The notes beneath the pieces are model-generated. The model was given only the letters and a program-made list of their open reading frames with translations, ran no database searches and had not been told where the DNA came from. The translations under genes and the position numbers were made by a program. Positions 1,082 through 35,341 of a stretch of 48,003 nt of DNA are shown piece after piece. The stretch comes from an uncultured Candidatus Saccharibacteria bacterium (lineage in GTDB: Bacteria; Patescibacteriota; Minisyncoccia; Phycocordibacterales; CSBR16-119): contig CAZTRC010000003.1 in the NCBI GenBank assembly GCA_964615845.1, positions 1-48,003 of the forward strand, read 5' to 3'. Position 1 is the first letter of the stretch, and the number at the start of each line of letters is the position of its first letter.

Positions 1082-3619
1082 ATGTCTATAGTTTCATCTA
1101 TAAAAGATATGTTCGGGGACGGCAATGCCGGCTTTTTGAAAGAGGCCGAAAAGGTGGTCAAAGCAGTGAACGCCTTGGAGGCGGGTCTAACTGAGCTCTC
1201 GGCCGAAGAATTCCCTAAGCGCACAAATGCTTTAAAAGAACGCTTTTTGGCTGGGGAAACTCTGGACCAGATATTGCCAGAAGCTTTTGCTCTGGTTCGC
1301 GAAGCCTCGAAAAGGACTCGCGGCCAGCGCCACTATGATGTCCAAATAATCGGCGGATACGCGCTTCACAAAGGCAAAATTGCCGAGATGAAAACCGGCG
1401 AAGGTAAGACTCTCGTTGCGACGCTACCTGTGTACCTGAACGCTATCGCGGGCCAAGGCGTCCATGTCGTGACCGTCAACGACTTCCTCGCGCGCCGCGA
1501 CGCCACGTGGATGGGGCAGATCTACGCCTACCTCGGGCTCACTGTCGCCGTCGTGAATTCCCAAAATGTTTCTTATATATATGATAGCGCGGCCGATCCA
1601 GCCAAAGACAAAGAACGCGACGAAGTCGGTTCATTCAAAGTCGTGTATGAATTTCTAAAACCTTGTGGTCGCAAAGAGGCATACGCCGCTGACATCACTT
1701 ACGGCACCAACAACGAATATGGTTTTGATTATTTGCGCGACAACTTGGCTCAAAATACTTCTGGGCTTGTCCAGCGCGGACATTATTTCGCCGTCGTTGA
1801 CGAAGTCGACTCTATCCTCATCGACGAGGCCCGCACTCCGCTTATCATCTCTGCTCCAGCCGAAGAATCTGGCGAGCTTTATGTGCGTTTTGCGGAAATT
1901 TCCAAACAACTGCAACCAGAAACTCACTACGGCATCGACGAAAAGCTTCGTGCCATCACCTTGAACGACGCCGGTATCGAACTCGCCGAGAAACTCCTCG
2001 GAATTGAAAACATTTATACTGAAAAAGGCATCAAATACGTCCACCACCTCGAGACAGCGGTGCGAGCCAGCGCGCTTTTCAAACGCGACAAAGAATATGT
2101 GGTCAACAACGGCGAAGTTATCATCATCGACCAATCAACTGGGCGCATGATGCCAGGCCGAAGATTCAATCAAGGCCTTCACCAAGCGCTCGAAGCCAAA
2201 GAAGGCGTCGAGATCAAGCAGGAAACCAAGACTGTCGCTTCGATCACTTACCAAAACTACTTCAGGTTTTACAAAAAGTTAAGCGGTATGACCGGTACGG
2301 CCAAGACTTCGCAAGAAGAGTTTTACACCGTCTACGGTCTCGACGTCATTAGCATCCCGACCAATGTCCCGGTAGCGCGCCTCGATCATGATGACCTCAT
2401 TTTCCAAACCGAGAAGGGCAAATTCCAAGCGATTGCGCGTAAAATAAAAGAAGTGAACCAAACCGGCCAGCCTATCCTCATCGGTACCATCTCGATCGAA
2501 CGCAACGAACTCTTGTCAGAATACCTCCGCAAAGAAGGCATTTCGCACACGATCTTGAACGCCAAGAAACACGAGTCCGAAGGCGAGATCGTAGCCTCAG
2601 CTGGAAAGCTCGGCGCGGTGACGATCGCGACCAACATGGCAGGTCGTGGTATCGACATCAAGCTCGGCGGGGAAATGGCGACGCCGGAACAGCACGCTCA
2701 AGTGAAATCTCTCGGCGGACTCTTTGTCCTCGGAACTGAGCGCCATGAATCTCGCCGTATCGACAACCAGCTCCGCGGACGCTCCGGCCGCCAAGGCGAT
2801 CCGGGCGCGACACAATTTTTCGTCTCTCTCGATGACGACCTCATGCGTATCTTCGGCGGAGATAGGATGAAAGCCATGATGGGTAGATTTGGCATCAGTG
2901 AAGACGAGCCGATCAAAAACAGCTTCATCAGCCGGGCTATCGAGAGTGCCCAGAAGAAAATCGAAGGCTTCAATTTCGATTCGCGAAAGAACACGCTCGA
3001 ATATGACAACGTCCTAAATACCCAGAGAAATGCTATCTACGCTCGCCGAAAGAAGATGCTCTCGGCTCCGGACGCTGAAATACAGGAGTTCTTGTTTGAA
3101 ATCGCGCCGGATAGGGTGAAAATGGAGGAGCTGATTGCGGCGAAAATCCAAGAAGTCGGCGAAGCGCAATTTTATAACACCGCTCGCCGGATTATTCTCT
3201 ACGTCACCGACATCTTGTGGATTGAGCACCTAGAGACGATGGATCATGTCCGCTCATCCGTGAATCTCCGCGCCTACGGCCAAAGAGAGCCGATTATCGA
3301 ATACAAGAAAGAAGGCTTGAACTTCTTCAACCAAATGGAAGCATCCCTCAAAGAGCAGGTCTTGTCTCTCATCGACACCATCCGCGTCGCCGCCGCGTCA
3401 GCCGAAGCTCCGAAAGAAGCGCCGAAGCAATACATGGAGAGCGGCGGGGGAACTGAGTCCGAAAACGCTGGCCAAACCATCCAAAAATCCGAAGAAGACA
3501 AAATCGGGCGTAACGACATTGTCATTATCCAAAAGGGAACTGAAACTCAAGAAATTAAATACAAAAAAGCGGAGCAATTGCTCGCGGAAGGATGGACGAT
3601 AAAGGAGGTTAAGAAATAA
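1082..3619 (+). CDS. secA: preprotein translocase ATPase SecA
   Basis: 845 aa. Walker A is MKTGEGKT, the DEAD-like box is VDEVDSILIDEARTPLIIS, and the motifs TGMTGTA and RGRSGRQGDPG are unmistakable SecA signatures. Confidence 0.98.
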   Translation: MSIVSSIKDMFGDGNAGFLKEAEKVVKAVNALEAGLTELSAEEFPKRTNALKERFLAGETLDQILPEAFALVREASKRTRGQRHYDVQIIGGYALHKGKIAEMKTGEGKTLVATLPVYLNAIAGQGVHVVTVNDFLARRDATWMGQIYAYLGLTVAVVNSQNVSYIYDSAADPAKDKERDEVGSFKVVYEFLKPCGRKEAYAADITYGTNNEYGFDYLRDNLAQNTSGLVQRGHYFAVVDEVDSILIDEARTPLIISAPAEESGELYVRFAEISKQLQPETHYGIDEKLRAITLNDAGIELAEKLLGIENIYTEKGIKYVHHLETAVRASALFKRDKEYVVNNGEVIIIDQSTGRMMPGRRFNQGLHQALEAKEGVEIKQETKTVASITYQNYFRFYKKLSGMTGTAKTSQEEFYTVYGLDVISIPTNVPVARLDHDDLIFQTEKGKFQAIARKIKEVNQTGQPILIGTISIERNELLSEYLRKEGISHTILNAKKHESEGEIVASAGKLGAVTIATNMAGRGIDIKLGGEMATPEQHAQVKSLGGLFVLGTERHESRRIDNQLRGRSGRQGDPGATQFFVSLDDDLMRIFGGDRMKAMMGRFGISEDEPIKNSFISRAIESAQKKIEGFNFDSRKNTLEYDNVLNTQRNAIYARRKKMLSAPDAEIQEFLFEIAPDRVKMEELIAAKIQEVGEAQFYNTARRIILYVTDILWIEHLETMDHVRSSVNLRAYGQREPIIEYKKEGLNFFNQMEASLKEQVLSLIDTIRVAAASAEAPKEAPKQYMESGGGTESENAGQTIQKSEEDKIGRNDIVIIQKGTETQEIKYKKAEQLLAEGWTIKEVKK

Positions 3620-8000: not shown

Positions 8001-8179
8001 CACTCCTGGTAAAACTCAATCGCGCCGTACATCGCTCCGTGATCAGTAATGGCTAGAGCCTTCATGCCGAACTTCTTGGCTTGCGCCACCAAATCGCTCA
8101 CTTTTGACATTCCGTCCAAGAGGGAATAATGCGAATGCGTATGCAAATGGACGAAATCGGGTTTCATAAGTAGGGACAT
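5003..8179 (-). CDS. dnaE: DNA polymerase III alpha subunit
   Basis: 1058 aa. It has an N-terminal PHP domain (FVHLHTHSHYSLLDG), the palm/fingers segment PDIDMDF, and a C-terminal OB fold. The start could instead be the ATG at 8167. Confidence 0.97.
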   Translation of the reverse strand: MSLLMKPDFVHLHTHSHYSLLDGMSKVSDLVAQAKKFGMKALAITDHGAMYGAIEFYQECLDAGIKPIIGVEAYIAERGRKDKEPNIDNKRYHLTLLAKNNTGYRNLMKLVSASFIDGYYYKPRMDEEILRKHAEGIICLSGCPAGELANAIRAKNDERAENIIKKYQDIFGKENFFLELMGHKEVDNYEILKEGVRALSKKFDIPVVATWDSHYLHQDDKEAHKTLLAINTNSRDLEMSGDYHLIDQNEALEYFKDVPEAVENTGKIADMVDIQIELGKWVFPKFELEPGEDAESQLRKYVYAGIPRRYGESREEIEKRIEYELEIIKNKGFSIYLLIVADLIRFASENKILTNIRGSVAGSICTYLLGITNVDPLHFKLPFERFLNPERPSAPDIDMDFADNRRDEVIDYARKKYGENAVAQIGTFGTMMARGSVRDVARALGYPYGVGDKISKLIPLGKQGFAMTIDKALKMVPELSEQYDKDKATKEIIDLAKKIEGCARHISVHAAGVVISPTRVDDYAPIQLDPKGGKIITQYDMHAVESAGLIKFDFLGIRNLAILADAVRLVEKTEGVIVDIENIPMDNRKTYEMLARGETIGLFQLNGSGMTRYLKELRPTVIDDINAMVALYRPGPMEIIPEYIRRKQNSHLIKYLDPRMKEILSQSYGVITYQDDVLLIAIHLGGYSWLEADKLRKAMGKKIPEVMAAEKEKLISGFIKNGLPKDKANALWLLIEPFAAYGFNKAHAASYGRVAYQTGYMKANFPVPYMTAILTAESGDVEKISEIIHECDRMGIKVLPPDVNECFGGFTVIKNDTGIDAIRFGFYTIKNLGTDIADAIIEERRVRGKFTSLADFLERVTHKNVNKKSLEALIKSGAMDSFGDRGVLVANVENLTEFNKSFSKTDKDQGSLFGGSLAPKSILHLNDSAPATPKTKLAWEKELLGLYVSGHPLDDIREKIEKSGTNILKIKTVGRQDQPVTLACVVQTVKIIITKKNQQMAFIQLEDLSGTIEAVAFPTIYKKQMNSLLVDKILAIKGKVSIRDGEKTIVIDEIKEII

Positions 8180-8284
8180 TATAGCAGGTTGAATAGAGTA
8201 TTTTATGAGATATTGACATAAAACTTATACTATGATATAAATAAATCGACAACGCACCCTAACAACCACGAAACAACATACGTC

Positions 8285-8713
8285 ATGGACGCACCTAGCA
8301 AAGCTCTGAAGGCAATCGCCGATGCACCGAAGCCAGATCTCGAAGCGCTCTATATTGATTGGGGTAATTTATTAAAGAAGGTGAAAATTGGCTATTTCAT
8401 TTCGGCCTCGGCTGAAACACTTGTGAAATCACTAGGCTTTAACAAGTACAGTGGTGGTAAAAAAGGTCTGGTTTTTGAGCTATTCTTTCATGTCACCACT
8501 GAGGGATACCTTGCGAAACAAGATCGTGGTGGTCCTGTATGGGTGGCCACGTTCCAAGAAAATGGTACAGCCCAACTTTCCATTGTACAGCGCGTTGGGG
8601 AGAGTCACCAATTTCAAGGATCATGGGAAGAAGTGACTCGTAAGCTCTTCGAGATGGATCAGCTCATGCTCGCACAAGTCCCGGCAGTTCCAGAGGATCT
8701 GAAGAAGCAGTGA
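8285..8713 (+). CDS. hypothetical protein (142 aa)
   Basis: Clean ORF preceded by TTGACA-17-TATAAA (8213-8241) and followed by a terminator. No recognisable motif. Confidence 0.6.
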   Translation: MDAPSKALKAIADAPKPDLEALYIDWGNLLKKVKIGYFISASAETLVKSLGFNKYSGGKKGLVFELFFHVTTEGYLAKQDRGGPVWVATFQENGTAQLSIVQRVGESHQFQGSWEEVTRKLFEMDQLMLAQVPAVPEDLKKQ

Positions 8714-8732
8714 TCATGTTGTTCATGTGGCG

Positions 8733-8758
8733 AAACCCCGGCAATGCCGGGGTTTTCC
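8733..8758 (+). terminator. rho-independent terminator
   Basis: AAACCCCGGC-AAT-GCCGGGGTTT stem followed by TCC and a T-rich stretch. Confidence 0.8.
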
Positions 8759-8781
8759 ATTTTTAAATCACTAATCAACTA

Positions 8782-8817
8782 TCTAACGAATTCTGACGGT
8801 CGTCCAAATGTGTTAGA
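8782..8817. repeat. 36-bp nested palindrome, copy 1 (TCTAAC-7-GACG-GT-CGTC-7-GTTAGA)
   Basis: The sequence is TCTAACgaattctGACGgtCGTCcaaatgtGTTAGA. It ends 8 nt before the ATG at 8826. A second copy with the same 6-7-4-2-4-7-6 layout lies at 9314-9349. Confidence 0.85.
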
Positions 8818-8825
8818 ATATTTTT

Positions 8826-9308
8826 ATGGAATATGAGGCAACAATTTCTGAACTTATAATCAGTCATTTACTTTCTGCGCGTTCTTCCTATCGCCAAAAG
8901 AAAATATTGTGGGAACTGGTCAGAAAAAGGATGAAGTCGTCGAAGCAAAATTACTATCAGGCAGTGTATCGGCTTTCAAAGAAAGGTTTCATAAAGGAAA
9001 AAGATCAAGGTTATATTTTGAGTGACACTGGGAAATCTGAGTATGCGAATTTATATCGTCCGATAAAAAAGAAAATAAAGAAGACGAAAAAGATTCTTGT
9101 GATATTTGATATTCCGGAGTCTAAGAGAAAGATACGGGGATGGATTCGTAGTCAGTTGCGATGGTGGAATTTCAAGATGATGCAAAAAAGTGTTTGGCTG
9201 GGTGACGGACCTTTACCTGTCGAGTTCAAAGAAAGACTAAAAGATTTGGGTGTACGAAAGTCCGTACTAATTTTTACAGTAAAATCAGAAAAGCAAGGAA
9301 GTATCTAG
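8826..9308 (+). CDS. PaaX-like winged-helix regulator with a Cas2-fold (ferredoxin-like) domain
   Basis: 160 aa. The N-terminal wHTH-like segment is ...YYQAVYRLSKKGFIKEKDQGYILSDTG. The segment KILVIFDIPESKRKIRGWIRSQLRWWNFKMMQKSVWL matches the PaaX middle domain / Cas2 beta-alpha-beta-beta-alpha-beta signature (xxVxYDIPE..R..R..L...GF..LQ.SVW). Confidence 0.6.
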   Translation: MEYEATISELIISHLLSARSSYRQKKILWELVRKRMKSSKQNYYQAVYRLSKKGFIKEKDQGYILSDTGKSEYANLYRPIKKKIKKTKKILVIFDIPESKRKIRGWIRSQLRWWNFKMMQKSVWLGDGPLPVEFKERLKDLGVRKSVLIFTVKSEKQGSI

Positions 9309-9313
9309 AAAAA

Positions 9314-9349
9314 TCTAACGTAATCTGACGGTCGTCAAATATAGTTAGA
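9314..9349. repeat. 36-bp nested palindrome, copy 2
   Basis: The sequence is TCTAACgtaatctGACGgtCGTCaaatataGTTAGA. It starts 6 nt after the stop at 9308 and lies 48 nt upstream of rnhB. Confidence 0.85.
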
Positions 9350-9396
9350 TTTATTTATCGGGGTTTTTGTGGGTGATGTTGTGTTAAAATCGGATC

Positions 9397-9987
9397 ATGA
9401 AATGGATTGTCGGAATTGACGAGGTGGGCAGGGGACCGGTCGCTGGGCCGGTGTATGTTTGCGCTTTTTGGGCCGAGGCGGGAGAGATTGAGAGTATTGT
9501 CGCCGGAGCAAAATTGCCGCTTCGGGATTCGAAGAAATTGACCAAGAAAATGCGCGAGAAGTGGTTTCAGTATTTGCAGGATTTGGCGAAGCAAAAGAGA
9601 GTGCGGTACGTCATGACCAAAGCTTCCGCTCGAGAAATCGATGACAAGGGTATTGCCGTCTGCATCCGCGCGGCAGTCGATAACTGTCTCGAGAAATTAA
9701 ATCTCGATATTGCCGAAACAAAAGTCTTTCTCGATGGCGGACTAAGGACGCTAGAGAAATATAATCAAGAAACAGTGATAAAAGGTGACGAAAATATTCC
9801 CGTCATCGCGCTTGCATCAATCGTCGCCAAAGTTTCGCGCGATGCGGAAATGCAGGAGCTTGCGAAAGAGTATCCGGATTATCTGTGGGATAAAAATTCC
9901 GGCTACGGTACGAGCGCGCACATGAAAGCGATTAGGGAAAAGGGAACATGCCCATTGCACCGTATTTCGTTTTTGAAGAATATATGA
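9397..9987 (+). CDS. rnhB: ribonuclease HII
   Basis: The N-terminus IVGIDEVGRGPVAGPV contains the catalytic DE motif. DSKKL and the C-terminal GYGT..H motif are also present. Confidence 0.93.
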   Translation: MKWIVGIDEVGRGPVAGPVYVCAFWAEAGEIESIVAGAKLPLRDSKKLTKKMREKWFQYLQDLAKQKRVRYVMTKASAREIDDKGIAVCIRAAVDNCLEKLNLDIAETKVFLDGGLRTLEKYNQETVIKGDENIPVIALASIVAKVSRDAEMQELAKEYPDYLWDKNSGYGTSAHMKAIREKGTCPLHRISFLKNI

Positions 9988-13249: not shown

Positions 13250-13347
13250 GCCGGGGCGCTTTCGTGATTTTTTCGGTCCTCGGGTCGGCCAGAGGGTCGG
13301 GGCGATGGCCTCAACCAGACACGCAAAAATCACGAAAGCGCCCCGGC
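13250..13347. repeat. long perfect hairpin with conserved split core, copy 1
   Basis: 13250-13272 is the exact reverse complement of 13325-13347 (23 bp). The 52-nt interior shares a 15-nt 5' block and a 13-nt 3' block with the reverse complement of the interior of 44928-45024. Confidence 0.9.
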
Positions 13348-17461: not shown

Positions 17462-17806
17462 ATGAACCCAAAACAAATTTTTAGTTGGCTAAAGTCTGAC
17501 GTCATATTTTTTATCGCAATTAACGTTGTCCTTATCGCTATTTTCAAGAACAGGCTTTCGGGGCTTATGTATATCGACCTCTTCCGTCTGGTGGTCCTCG
17601 CGCTGGCGGTCTACCGATTGGGCACGATTTTTCAGACTACACCGATCGTTCGGACAATCGCGCCAGGAATTTGGCTTGCGACAATCCTCGTTTACGCCTA
17701 CGGCTTTTGGCCAGTGCCGATGTTTATCATCGTTCTTATCTTCGCGCTAAGCGCGCTCGAAAGGATTATCTCTGCCATCATTTCAGTTTTGAAACCAAGA
17801 GCTTAA
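17462..17806 (+). CDS. small integral membrane protein (114 aa, 4 predicted helices)
   Basis: The hydrophobic profile supports it, and it is followed by a strong terminator. Confidence 0.6.
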   Translation: MNPKQIFSWLKSDVIFFIAINVVLIAIFKNRLSGLMYIDLFRLVVLALAVYRLGTIFQTTPIVRTIAPGIWLATILVYAYGFWPVPMFIIVLIFALSALERIISAIISVLKPRA

Positions 17807-17815
17807 AATCTCCAA

Positions 17816-17850
17816 TACAAAAGCCCCACGTCTGACGTGGGGCTTTTGTA
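17816..17850. terminator. bidirectional intrinsic terminator
   Basis: TACAAAAGCCCCACG-TCTGA-CGTGGGGCTTTTGTA forms a 15-bp stem. Confidence 0.85.
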
Positions 17851-17855
17851 TAGAT

Positions 17856-17963
17856 TTATGCCGCTGGGGCTGCTTCTGGTGTCGTTTCTTCGGCTGGAGC
17901 TACCGGTGTGGCAGGTTCTGCTACTACGTCAGGCGTTTTTGTTTCTTCTGTTGTATCTGCCAT
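17856..17963 (-). CDS. 35-aa acidic/Pro-rich micro-protein (MADTTEETKTPDVVAEPATPVAPAEETTPEAAPAA)
   Basis: Minus-strand ATG at 17963-17961 and TAA at 17858-17856. It is below the track cutoff and ends next to the terminator. It shares the MADT N-terminus with the next ORF. Confidence 0.45.
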   Translation of the reverse strand: MADTTEETKTPDVVAEPATPVAPAEETTPEAAPAA

Positions 17964-18020
17964 ATATTTTGAAATTACTGATAATCAGGAGTATAGCACA
18001 GATCCATATATTTTGCTCGA

Positions 18021-18170
18021 TTAGTTTTCGTCGTTTTCTCTTACTTCTTCGGCTTTTTCTTCGAGAGCGTCTGCCTTGTCATCCATGGCATCGGCCGATT
18101 CTTCTTGCGCCTCCTCAATTCGATCGTCAGCATCTTCTATTGTTGCGTCTTGTTCACTTGTGTCTGCCAT
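18021..18170 (-). CDS. 49-aa highly acidic micro-protein (MADTSEQDATIEDADDRIEEAQEESADAMDDKADALEEKAEEVRENDEN)
   Basis: Minus-strand ATG at 18170-18168 and TAA at 18023-18021. The + strand track ORFs over this region are Leu/Ser-rich shadows. Confidence 0.5.
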   Translation of the reverse strand: MADTSEQDATIEDADDRIEEAQEESADAMDDKADALEEKAEEVRENDEN

Positions 18171-18313
18171 AAATTTAAAATTAAAATTGATAATTTCTAT
18201 TTTACCATTTTTGAAACCAGTTGTGTCACGATCTAATCGTCCGACACGAATAGATTTCCACCAAACGAAAAGGCCCGCTTGGGAGCGAAACCTTTCGTTT
18301 CCTCAGCGGGCCT

Positions 18314-18616
18314 TCATGCTTCTTTGGGTGCTGTTACGATTTCCCAGGCCCACCTGTTGGTCTTCTCGTAGAAATGCAGAAGGAAGTGGTGGTCCTCGCT
18401 GGCCCCTAGCCACACCCGGAAGGTTTTACTCGGGCCTCCCTGGGTGCGCTTTTCGATAGGAGGTTCTCCGAGATAGCATCGGCAGGGTTTGCGGATCAAT
18501 CCGGCGAACTCTGTCACAGTAGACATTGGGTCGGAGATGGGACCTTTGTTGACCCGTTCACATACTTCAGTGGCCAGTTCTTTAGTGGTGGGTTCGGCGG
18601 CGGTTGCGTTTAGCAT
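18314..18616 (-). CDS. hypothetical protein (100 aa, GC-rich)
   Basis: Clean ORF followed by the hairpin GGCCCGC...GCGGGCC at about 18273-18315. No known motif. Confidence 0.5.
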   Translation of the reverse strand: MLNATAAEPTTKELATEVCERVNKGPISDPMSTVTEFAGLIRKPCRCYLGEPPIEKRTQGGPSKTFRVWLGASEDHHFLLHFYEKTNRWAWEIVTAPKEA

Positions 18617-18839
18617 GGCGGTCGGTTTTCAACCATTTTACACAAATCCCGTAAATTGGGAAGAGTGGCTCTTCTGGAAAAACAAAAGTTTTAGTCTTGG
18701 CAAAATCGATAAGAGGCCTGACATTTTTGGCAGATTTAATAGAAATATCTCGCTTGCCAGATTTATCGTTTGGATTCCAAAGACTTCCTCATGAAATAGC
18801 TCTTCTTACCGACGTTCTCCTACATGGTATGATTTAGAA

Positions 18840-20114
18840 ATGTTGCATGCCAAATCATTCACCTTCTGTGCATACAAAGTCGATACGGTTCGTTCGATTA
18901 TCACCTTTACCTACCGTGTGGAATTTCGATACGGGATAACGAAGACTTTTACTGACAAGCTCTCCTTTCCCGATGTGGCGCCAGAATTATGGGAGAAAGT
19001 ACCCAAGGCGGTGCTCGAGTCAACGCTCCAAGCACTCCTCCTCATGATCGGCATCAACTACTGGTGCGTTTTTCCGACCCGAAATATTCAGATCGAAGGA
19101 TTTACTCTCACTCGTGAACAGGCACAATTTTGGGACTTGCTGTATTTGAATGGGCTCGGAGAATTTTTCTACAACATGAAGATGGATTTTCATAATCTCA
19201 TCGCGTTTCCGTATGACGATTCTGCTGTCGCGCCTCTGCCCGCACGATTCGAACGGCCGGCGCGTGCGCTTCTTTTGAACGGCGCGGGCAAAGACTCAAT
19301 TCTCTCCGCTGAAATATTGAAAGCGGAAGGTGTACCGTTCGACTTTTTCGCATATGAACCAACGCCTGCGCATAAGCGAATTGCTAGCCTAGTAGGCGCA
19401 AAAACTATAAATGTTACCCGTCGTCGCGATTCGTATCTCGACGTTATCATGTCCCTGTTTGGAGTGTCGAGTGCGTATCCGTCGGTTTCCACCTTCACGT
19501 TCGTTGCCACACTACTCGCACAGCTTCTCGGCTACGACAAGATCGTCTTCTCCAACGAAAAGAGCGCCGATTTCGGTAATCTCACTTATCTCGGCCTCTC
19601 GGTGAACCATCAATGGTGCAAATCTTCTGAGGCGGAAAAGATGGTCAACGATTACATCCAGCGTTTTATAACACCCGATATTTCCACTTCCTCGCTCTTG
19701 CGGAAATACAGCGAACTTGAGATCGTGCGACGCTTCGTAAGCCATCCGAAGTATCTCCGTTACGTCACTAGCTGCAACACATATTTTTGGCTCTCACGCA
19801 CTGAACAGCTTCTCATGCGTAAGTCGTACTGGTGCAAGAAGTGTCCGAAATGTGTGTTTCTCTTTGCGTGCTTCGCGGCATATCTCCCAAAAAAAGAAGT
19901 AGTCGATATCTTTGGCGATGATATTTATACCAAGAAGCGCCTCCTGCCGCTCGTCCGACGGATTCTCGGTATCGAAGGATTCAAACCGCTTGATTGTGTC
20001 GGTGAACCCGAAGAGATGATCCTCGCCATGCATCTCGCATCACGTAGCGGTGAATATGCCGGTGAGCCGGCAATGCAGCTTTTTGAGGAGCGCTTCCCGT
20101 CAAGGATAGATTAA
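18840..20114 (+). CDS. hypothetical protein with a PP-loop-like motif (adenine-nucleotide alpha-hydrolase-like) and a C-terminal Cys cluster
   Basis: 424 aa. LLLNGAGKDS resembles the SGGxDS PP-loop. There is a later WCKKCPKCVFLFAC Cys cluster. The family was not identified with confidence. Confidence 0.5.
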   Translation: MLHAKSFTFCAYKVDTVRSIITFTYRVEFRYGITKTFTDKLSFPDVAPELWEKVPKAVLESTLQALLLMIGINYWCVFPTRNIQIEGFTLTREQAQFWDLLYLNGLGEFFYNMKMDFHNLIAFPYDDSAVAPLPARFERPARALLLNGAGKDSILSAEILKAEGVPFDFFAYEPTPAHKRIASLVGAKTINVTRRRDSYLDVIMSLFGVSSAYPSVSTFTFVATLLAQLLGYDKIVFSNEKSADFGNLTYLGLSVNHQWCKSSEAEKMVNDYIQRFITPDISTSSLLRKYSELEIVRRFVSHPKYLRYVTSCNTYFWLSRTEQLLMRKSYWCKKCPKCVFLFACFAAYLPKKEVVDIFGDDIYTKKRLLPLVRRILGIEGFKPLDCVGEPEEMILAMHLASRSGEYAGEPAMQLFEERFPSRID

Positions 20115-33892: not shown

Positions 33893-35341
33893 ATGAAGCG
33901 AAGACAATTGTCACAATTACTTGGGCTGACCGTAATGTTACTAGCCACGCCGATCCTGGCGTTTGCTGATATTTCTGTGACCGAAATCGCCTGGATGGGG
34001 ACGGCTGCGAGCGCGAATGATGAGTGGATCGAAATCTATAATAGCGGATCGGCCTCCGTGAATTTGTCTGGTTACACTTTGAATGCGGCTGATGGCACCC
34101 CCTCGATTAATCTCTCGGGGTCGATTGGAGCAGGGGAATATAAACTGCTTGAACGCACTGACGACACAACCTTTCCAGGCATCACGGCACTTTCCATCTT
34201 TACCGGAGCACTTGGAAATGAAGGTGAGAGTTTGGTCCTTAAAGATGGTGCCACAACAATTCAGACGATGAATTTCGCTGGTGGCTGGCCGGCGGGAAGC
34301 GCGACGACGCGCGAGACTATGCAACTTAGCGGCACCTCTTGGGTTACCGCTTCAGAAACAGCAGGTAGTGCGACAACAGCGAACGGCGACGATGACGATG
34401 GCGGAGACGATGACACAGGGGACGACGATGATACTGGCGACGATGACGACACTGGGATGGATGATGATGACGATGGCGATGATGATGACGACGATGATGA
34501 CGAGAATGCTTCTGGTACCAAGCAACAACCGCAGCGTAAAATTTACGACGATATGATTTTTGAGGTAGACTTTCCGTCGCGCGTCATTGCTGGAAGTCCC
34601 GCCAAGTTTAGCGCCGTAGCGCTTGATTTCAACCGGACGAAGATTCGCAAAGGTCAATATATTTTTAACATGGGTGACGGTACGGTCAGGACGTTTTCAA
34701 AGAGTTGGAACGGCGATATCAAAGGATTTTTCTATCATACCTATGACTATCCCGGCACATATAGTATTTCTATAAATTATTACGAGACCTATTTCGAAGG
34801 AGTTGCGCCGGAAGTCGAGGATGATTTTACTATCGATGTTCTCCCTCCGGAGATTTCGATTGTGCGTGTTCACTCTGATGGTGCTATCGAGATGAAAAAT
34901 TCATCTTCTGTTTCGATAGACATAAGCGGATGGAAACTTTCGGACGGATTTGGCCACACTTTCGCTATCCCAGAGAAATCAGTTATTCTCTCGGGCAAAA
35001 CCGCCGTCTTTCCGAAGAAACGTACTCGGCTTGAAGCTCTCGGTGGGGTGACTCTCGTGACCCCGACAGGAGCCTTGGTTCATTCGACAATTGAAACCAA
35101 GTCGATTCTCAAAGCCTCGAACACCGCCGTAAAACCGATAAGTAAAACCGCTGAGAGTGAAGTTTTGGGCGCGAGCATTGCCTCGGTAGATGATGGTATT
35201 GAGACTCCCGCCAAAGAAAAGAGTCCAAACTCTTTGGTCTGGACTCTTCTCTTTGTCATCCTGGTTTTGATTGCTGTTATCGCCGTGCTTCTTTTAAAGA
35301 AAGATGAGCCGTTACAGGAATACGAACTCATCGACGAGTAA
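33893..35341 (+). CDS. surface protein with two lamin-tail (LTD) domains, a poly-Asp tract, a PKD-like middle domain and a C-terminal TM anchor
   Basis: There is a signal peptide. ISVTEIAWMG....NDEWIEIYNSG..SVNLSGYTL is an LTD signature, and a second LTD-like segment is EMKNSSSVSIDISGWKLSDG. The C-terminal helix is LVWTLLFVILVLIAVIAVLLL. Confidence 0.75.
   Translation: MKRRQLSQLLGLTVMLLATPILAFADISVTEIAWMGTAASANDEWIEIYNSGSASVNLSGYTLNAADGTPSINLSGSIGAGEYKLLERTDDTTFPGITALSIFTGALGNEGESLVLKDGATTIQTMNFAGGWPAGSATTRETMQLSGTSWVTASETAGSATTANGDDDDGGDDDTGDDDDTGDDDDTGMDDDDDGDDDDDDDDENASGTKQQPQRKIYDDMIFEVDFPSRVIAGSPAKFSAVALDFNRTKIRKGQYIFNMGDGTVRTFSKSWNGDIKGFFYHTYDYPGTYSISINYYETYFEGVAPEVEDDFTIDVLPPEISIVRVHSDGAIEMKNSSSVSIDISGWKLSDGFGHTFAIPEKSVILSGKTAVFPKKRTRLEALGGVTLVTPTGALVHSTIETKSILKASNTAVKPISKTAESEVLGASIASVDDGIETPAKEKSPNSLVWTLLFVILVLIAVIAVLLLKKDEPLQEYELIDE
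34388..34504 (+). repeat. coding low-complexity tract: 39 residues, almost all Asp with G/T spacers (DDDDGGDDDTGDDDDTGDDDDTGMDDDDDGDDDDDDDDE)
   Basis: Read directly from GAC/GAT codon runs, with a repeating GGx-GAC-GAC-GAT-GAx-ACT unit. Confidence 0.9.

Follow-up and report, generated by a model that had tools for sequence, protein, structure and literature searches.

The gene of a small winged-helix protein and the two palindromes that bracket it form an evolutionarily kept portable unit, whose gain, loss, and relocation concern the block as a whole. We analyzed this unit in a window of 48,003 nt (positions 1 to 48,003 of contig CAZTRC010000003.1, assembly GCA_964615845.1) from an uncultured Candidatus Saccharibacteria bacterium; positions given without a contig or locus name refer to this window, the whole stretch of DNA under study. 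The gene lies on the plus strand (8826-9308) and encodes a 160-amino-acid (aa) protein, here called mini-PaaX, which has a winged helix (approximately residues 7-74) and a Cas2-like ferredoxin fold (approximately residues 88-152) and lacks the PaaX_C domain. A 36-bp palindrome stands on either side of it, copy 1 upstream (8782-8817) and copy 2 downstream (9314-9349), neither of them assigned to a strand. Copy 1 is a predicted operator over the gene's own promoter, and copy 2 is a predicted second binding site. We lean toward the reading that mini-PaaX represses its own gene and that this regulator and its two cognate sites together make up the portable one-gene unit.

The Patescibacteria (candidate phyla radiation, CPR) have tiny genomes and few recognized regulators, and gene control in them is almost uncharted. 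As far as sequence comparison goes, the layout described here is common to a large uncharacterized protein family, and a literature search of approximately 8.4 million texts found no published description of a bracketed mini-PaaX gene. Each family member carries its own predicted site twice beside its gene. These ready-made protein-site pairs could serve to work out a binding-specificity code, to obtain orthogonal repressors, and to test for the first time how leaderless promoters are controlled in uncultured bacteria.

The palindromes and the encoded protein

Both copies share the pattern TCTAAC-N7-GACGGTCGTC-N7-GTTAGA, with copy 1 reading TCTAACGAATTCTGACGGTCGTCCAAATGTGTTAGA and copy 2 reading TCTAACGTAATCTGACGGTCGTCAAATATAGTTAGA. 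They have the same orientation (center GGTC), and 29 of the 36 bases are identical in an ungapped comparison. Copy 1 is separated by 8 nt from the ATG at 8826; copy 2 begins 5 nt past the TAG (9306-9308) and ends 47 nt short of the rnhB ATG (9397). When the window was scanned for the 22 fixed bases of the pattern with up to 3 mismatches, only the two known sites were returned, and the 100 dinucleotide-preserving shuffles used as a control gave 0 matches. The same pattern was found at just these two sites in the genome to which the window belongs (G000; 659,493 bp in 45 contigs, 97% complete). Looser scans of the whole genome (arms, half-sites, core, and core-centered palindromes) showed no third copy, no solo copies, and no regulon.

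The two bracketing palindromes had been reported in a preliminary description of the window, and their sequences and coordinates were recovered as given there; the search for further TCTAAC...GTTAGA sites that it proposed yielded the two bracketing copies only, and in relatives the layout recurs with other letters (see below). Its strict 6-7-4-2-4-7-6 layout stood in part. The fixed outer and inner parts read as written, but the 7-nt spacers are not free, because in each copy 13 of the 18 positions counted from the center between GG and TC are paired and because these spacers appear in the orthologues as degenerate stretches of a longer arm (TTTCTGC / GCAGAAA). Judged from these alignments, the site is a degenerate palindrome with arms of approximately 16 bp and a 4-nt center.

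The protein matched the Pfam models PaaX_M (PF20803; 52.2 bits, cut-off 24, residues 91-157) and CRISPR_Cas2 (PF09827; 27.2 bits, cut-off 23.8), and the Pfam model of the PaaX N-domain gave no match at E ≤ 1. Residues 41-143 were colinear with positions 35-140 of the 279 positions of TIGR02277, with a score of 23.7 bits against a cut-off of 264.55. An AlphaFold2 model built from 18 family sequences (predicted local distance difference test, pLDDT, 86) showed an N-terminal part made of three helices with a beta wing (7-74) and a C-terminal part with a beta-alpha-beta-beta-alpha-beta fold (88-152). When this model was compared with the Protein Data Bank by Foldseek, the top matches were Rv0674 of Mycobacterium tuberculosis (3kfw) and PaaX of Escherichia coli (8a39), both of them covered over the two domains; many Cas2 chains followed, which matched the C-terminal half. 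No profile match to PaaX_C was obtained, and the chain ends directly after the Cas2-like fold. Because it stops where PaaX_C would begin, and because the score is far below the TIGR02277 cut-off, the protein is best described from profiles and model as PaaX-like in architecture yet not a PaaX, a "mini-PaaX" minus the effector domain. The winged helix plus Cas2 fold of PaaX type that had been proposed from the letters of the window was thus borne out by profiles, alignment, model, and structural matches alike.

Compared with PaaX, the phenylacetyl-CoA-responsive repressor of E. coli and Pseudomonas, mini-PaaX has the same order of an N-terminal winged helix and a Cas2-like middle domain. It is, however, half the size (160 aa vs. 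approximately 316 aa), and without PaaX_C it has no evident ligand control. Residues D95, R104, R108, S122, and G69 were invariant in 47 of 47 family members, and the conserved Asp (D95) is placed at the end of strand 1, as in Cas2. The aligned stretch of E. coli PaaX is without the D-I-P-E and S-V-W motifs that mini-PaaX keeps along with the two Arg residues. Rv0674, which is PaaX-like and has no known target, was the best structural match over both domains; this protein and the PaaX-like Jannaschia protein 3l09 are longer (234-251 residues) and, unlike mini-PaaX, have a C-terminal domain. We know of no bracketing palindromes for either of them.

With Cas2 of CRISPR-Cas adaptation, mini-PaaX shares the ferredoxin-like fold, the above-cut-off Pfam match, and the strand-1 Asp, but it is fused to a winged helix. 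A profile search of the genome gave no match to Cas1 and no Cas2-type match other than mini-PaaX, which agrees with the earlier view of an orphan Cas2-like fold; CRISPR arrays were not searched for. The protein had no match among PHROGs profiles, matched only Cas2 and winged-helix models in PADLOC, and showed no Y1_Tnp or HUH match in the Pfam scan.

Copy 1 and the promoter of the mini-PaaX gene

An extended -10 box (TGTTAGAAT, 8811-8819, plus strand) overlaps the right arm of copy 1, with TAGA in common, and ends 6 nt from the ATG. The gap between box and ATG contains no Shine-Dalgarno sequence. In most of the orthologues read, a TANNNT hexamer precedes the start by exactly 6 nt, and across 124 family loci this hexamer was found at 6 nt in 51, at 7 nt in 19, and at 11 nt in 21, with approximately 2-15 loci at most other offsets. 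The box at 8811-8819 was not listed by a simple sigma-70 scan, because it has no good -35 box. These features indicate that the mini-PaaX promoter is leaderless. Copy 1 would therefore lie outside the gene's own RNA and act as DNA, and its location outside the transcript and over the -10 box would be that of a classical repressor operator.

The Cas2-like domain of PaaX pairs two chains, and a dimer that pairs through a central domain and has its two winged helices far apart would be expected to need long-spaced half-sites. The outer half-sites here, TCTAAC(N24)GTTAGA, are laid over the -10 box, and their 6-N24-6 arrangement resembles the operator geometry of PaaX, which also consists of two distant inverted 6-bp half-sites. 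In E. coli, the PaaX operator is TGATTC(N27)GAATCA, and the protein represses its own promoter through steric hindrance of RNA polymerase (PMC9493321). The mini-PaaX site has the same placement; the second copy past the stop codon distinguishes it from PaaX.

In the mechanism that we propose, a mini-PaaX dimer would bind the duplex form of each 36-bp site. Its two winged helices would read the outer arms TCTAAC and GTTAGA, whose centers are approximately 30 bp apart, and the conserved Cas2-like dimer would be seated over the conserved CG-N2-CG center. Copy 1, once bound, would block RNA polymerase, and the gene would thereby repress itself. Copy 2 would be a further site of the same protein and most likely a cooperative one, either by forming a loop with copy 1 or by acting as a roadblock that insulates the neighbor; this is the weakest step. 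A precedent for two spaced operators and DNA looping is given by the lac, gal, and deo repressors, and, as in those systems, two matched sites are a few hundred bp apart here, one of them at the promoter. The second mini-PaaX site differs in being placed past the end of the gene that encodes the regulator, and an oligomerization surface beyond the dimer is only hypothetical.

Because no other site is present in G000, mini-PaaX appears to control only itself in this genome; why a regulator that seemingly controls only itself is so successful is one of the questions that the family raises. The preliminary description had read the two copies as operators for autoregulation and for control of rnhB. 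Autoregulation received indirect support from the overlap with the -10 box, the PaaX-like geometry, and the matching pairs in orthologues and paralogues, whereas control of rnhB did not.

Gain, loss, and relocation of the bracketed unit

In the nearest relative, a congener whose mini-PaaX is 63% identical, the gene order dnaE, small open reading frame (ORF), mini-PaaX, rnhB, truB is retained, and palindromes are present at both matching places with changed arms and core (CGTGACACTTTCTGGCGATCGCAGAAATGTGTTACG and CATAACACTTTTCTGCTATCGCAGAAATATGTCACG). The orthologue clade comprised 11 cluster representatives (47-67% identity), and all 15 of the 15 loci whose flanks were read were bracketed by matching palindromes. 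The pairs were therefore conserved in every orthologue read, with differing letters. Paralogues (20-39% identity) had private arms around a common center (for example CGATCG, CGGTCG, CTATCG, or CTATAG), the core common to orthologues and paralogues being CG-N2-CG. A search of the relatives for the 13-mer core with 2 mismatches gave matches at the control level only.

A blind test took the 140 bp in front of each start codon and the 140 bp behind each stop codon, and the highest 30-mer identity between these two flanks was compared with that of mismatched-locus pairs. In the first set, 26 of 47 loci scored above the maximum of 120 mismatched-locus pairs; among the 80 independent loci of the second set, 41 were above the 99th percentile of the null. 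Overall, more than half of 127 family loci were bracketed, and at least one core-centered palindrome was found in 99 of 126 loci. Of the 121 genomes sampled from the class, 71 had at least one family member, the maximum being 13 copies in a 0.5-Mb genome, and a profile search placed the size of the family at approximately 6,900 clusters at 50% identity. Relatives within the Patescibacteria included Nomurabacteria, Paceibacterota, Zambryskibacteria, and others. In each of four genomes of 0.5-0.8 Mb (G060, G058, G120, and G141), the PaaX_M genes numbered 11-13, which is very many paralogues for genomes of this size.

When the locus was compared among close relatives, dnaE and rnhB were directly divergent in four congeners and four sister-genus genomes, with approximately 45 bp between them, and this empty gap contained two extended -10 boxes and no palindrome. 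The same gap in G000 and four relatives holds approximately 1.2 kb (roughly 8188-9376), made up of an accessory gene with its own terminator and then the palindrome-gene-palindrome block. The block has been held at dnaE-rnhB in 5 species, with protein identity down to approximately 60%. Across the clade it occurs in at least 5 contexts, including one between an aminoacyl-tRNA-synthetase-like gene and recO and others beside an mnmA-like gene, ftsH, and further genes. At one clade locus, the insertion was essentially the bracketed gene alone, beginning 1 nt past the upstream stop codon.

No palindrome was found at three empty sites, and the G000 junctions equivalent to other clade loci were uninterrupted; site-specific insertion into a resident palindrome was not supported, given those three sites. 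No target duplication was seen at the compared cassette and empty sites, and no recombinase linked to the unit was detected. The two copies had direct orientation in 53 loci and inverted orientation in 14, and within the orthologue clade they are direct in G000 and inverted in L088. The ends of transposons are expected to be inverted and excision sites to be direct. Orientation that is not fixed therefore argues against classical site-specific recombination, and a symmetric binder would be indifferent to it. Thus, of the earlier suggestion that a single-gene cassette had been inserted by site-specific recombination, the cassette itself held, since the unit is portable, missing from congeners, and found in several contexts, whereas the recombination mechanism did not, given the bare empty sites, the variable orientation, and the lack of a linked recombinase.

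Two further cassettes were noted. An orthologous cassette (L045:2566-4170; 51% identity) is located beside a large serine recombinase (Resolvase, Recombinase, and Zn_ribbon_recom domains) on a 4.3-kb metagenome contig. A paralogous cassette with the core GACGGTCGTCC (L007/L008, from G006/G004, reverse-complement approximately 900-2000) is preceded in both congeners by ligA, then a small membrane ORF and a terminator; just past its downstream palindrome synteny breaks, with gatC in one genome and glmS in the other. In G000, ligA is followed directly by gatC, with no palindrome between them.

The accessory gene at the dnaE-rnhB locus (hyp142, 142 aa, 8285-8713) had no family match in Pfam, NCBIfam-type, PHROGs, or PADLOC profile searches. 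Its intrinsic terminator (8732-8766, plus strand; 11-bp stem, 7 GC pairs, T-rich tail) sets it apart from the cassette. The gene was considered as a partner of mini-PaaX and rejected: homologues with a terminator of the same kind occur elsewhere without mini-PaaX, and one orthologous cassette has a different gene at that place. We placed it outside the unit for these two reasons. The small ORFs adjoining other cassettes were mutually unrelated. The CCCCGG-stem terminator was strongly conserved; hyp142 itself is a variable accessory gene, present at differing loci in G004, G015, and G017.

Alternative readings and comparison with known systems

Several observations weigh against a self-repressing dimer as the whole explanation. 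A repressor needs no site past its own stop codon. A crude test for a specific link between the winged helix and the divergence of the arms failed, as Mantel tests of arm divergence against domain divergence gave a rho of approximately 0.12 for the winged helix and the Cas2 domain alike (partials 0.065 and 0.069). The Cas2-type Asp, Arg, Arg, and Ser are invariant in the family yet missing from E. coli PaaX, and for this reason the Cas2-like domain may have a function besides chain pairing; a second question raised by the family is why a DNA-site-specific protein has kept a Cas2-type fold and its catalytic-type residues. Where both sides of an arm position differed between the two copies of a locus, pairing was kept in 35 of 45 cases against a chance expectation of 1/3 (P ~ 1e-9). 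This excess of symmetry is not predicted by independent half-site contacts and fits a hairpin or cruciform, or a "correction" of quasi-palindromes, for which mutational correction via template switching is known. Finally, two congeners have gene-less palindrome pairs in gaps that separate convergent genes, and a promoter would not be expected there.

Three gene-less pairs were recorded, with members 1-15 bp apart and all of them between convergent genes next to terminators. One is at L175:1940-2040 (G004:C4, approximately 33,940-34,040), and its left site is near-identical over 18 bases to the upstream site of an orthologue; the others are at L176:1030-1120 (G001:C1, approximately 3,330-3,420) and L177:1000-1100 (G001:C1, approximately 217,900-218,000). 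In G001, one pair member is closely similar to the genome's own cassette sites, and for another the genome contains no cognate mini-PaaX gene. Such pairs may be deletion scars, or they may reflect a spread of palindromes alone. The G004:C4 pair also adjoins a RAYT-type palindrome.

It is chiefly these pairs that keep alive the reading of a selfish mobile unit, comparable to repetitive extragenic palindromes (REP) and their RAYT genes, whose working ends would be the palindromes; the Cas2-fold protein would recognize these ends as a hairpin or cruciform and help to cut, copy, or move them, with self-repression as a by-product. We regard this reading as unlikely. It would account for the absence of the unit from congeners and its several contexts within one orthologue clade, for the high copy number per genome, for the excess of symmetry-preserving differences, for the invariant catalytic-type Asp lost from true PaaX, and for the break of synteny between two congeners directly past the downstream palindrome. 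The REP/RAYT systems share the layout, as a RAYT gene (an IS200-like Y1 transposase) likewise has a copy of its own palindrome on either side and is accompanied by related gene-less palindromes, such as the congeners hold for the mini-PaaX type. Its fold, however, is unrelated, and mini-PaaX has no HUH/Y1 motif, no Cas1, and no recombinase partner. The mini-PaaX palindrome is not spread in G000, where two copies and no solo copy are present, whereas the true RAYT genes of the same genome have dispersed REP-like copies; its upstream copy, moreover, is built into the promoter. Stable residence at dnaE-rnhB in the 5 species, empty sites without a palindrome or target duplication, and the unfixed orientation of the copies also speak against mobility of this kind. 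Less probable still, in our estimation, is a mini-PaaX that is more than a repressor, in which the Cas2-type domain would act on the palindromes as DNA structures and the whole would be a self-propagating REP/RAYT-like unit on a Cas2 fold, with the gene-less pairs as its footprints.

We also considered that the palindromes act as structures independent of the protein, either as a 3' hairpin or terminator together with a promoter-proximal hairpin or as generic intergenic palindromic insertions, and found this improbable. Copy 2 folds modestly as RNA in its context (-13.6 kcal/mol, z = -2.1, a weak value) and is followed by a T-rich tract, the downstream palindrome passed the terminator filter in 8 of 66 bracketed loci, and other palindromic elements exist in G000 and its relatives. 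On the other side, copy 2 was not called by a terminator scan, and the G000 hairpins are weak (-8.6 to -11.9 kcal/mol). Replacement of the terminator by the downstream palindrome was not supported, as canonical terminators were found in 8 of 66 bracketed and 11 of 58 unbracketed loci (P = 0.33). Positions unpaired by a single change showed no sense-strand wobble bias (43 G-T vs. 45 A-C), and this lack of a G-T excess speaks against an RNA hairpin; for copy 1, an RNA role is unlikely because the promoter is predicted to be leaderless, which would leave it outside the transcript. In addition, each paralogue has a private pair whose two members are far more alike than the upstream and downstream flanks of mismatched loci. 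Binding of both copies as duplex DNA by mini-PaaX is the reading that we retain.

The promoter of rnhB consists of an extended -10 box (TGTTAAAAT, 9382-9390, hexamer 9385-9390, plus strand) placed 6 nt ahead of the ATG at 9397 and 35 bp past the end of copy 2. It was retained from the ancestral dnaE-rnhB intergenic region, as boxes of the TGTTAnTAT type are found at the same place in congeners without the cassette. Control of rnhB by mini-PaaX through copy 2, which the preliminary description had put forward, was not supported and is very doubtful: copy 2 is upstream of rnhB with its center approximately 65 bp before the likely transcript start, a position usable by activators, and the next-gene promoter is 26-38 bp beyond the downstream site in several orthologues, but the identical type of promoter exists in cassette-free congeners, copy 2 is clear of the core promoter, and elsewhere the cassette precedes unrelated genes (gatC, glmS, recO, a hydrolase, or a tRNA).

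The -10 box of rnhB stands exactly 6 nt ahead of its ATG (9382-9399), as does that of the mini-PaaX gene; because this spacing is shared, leaderless messages seem to be common in this lineage. On the other side of the locus, comparison with relatives (MKPDFVHLH...) placed the start of dnaE probably at 8167 and not at 8179 (8165-8179). Elsewhere in the window, a link between the bracketing palindromes and a mobile hairpin of approximately 100 nt (13250-13347) was rejected, as its core differs.

Three or four IS200-like (Y1_Tnp) genes of RAYT type were found in G000 (C24:687-1438, C11:9298-10036, C15:6312-6994, and C13:7302-7787). Each has perfect palindromes of its own on both sides (for example CATAGGACAGACCT..., CTAACACTCAAGGTTCGACCTTGAGTGTTAG, and ...GAGGTCGGACCTC...), with more copies over many contigs. 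A palindrome at C4:18473 (TCTAAC...GTTAGA) was rejected as a mini-PaaX site because it is a member of such a RAYT-associated repeat family. Two RAYT-type palindromes on the same contig (C4:18471-18507 and 18810-18838) are in frame inside a 587-aa priA-like ORF (minus strand, 17513-19273), where they are translated as ...SNTQGSTLSVR... and ...LLRSDLNNL....

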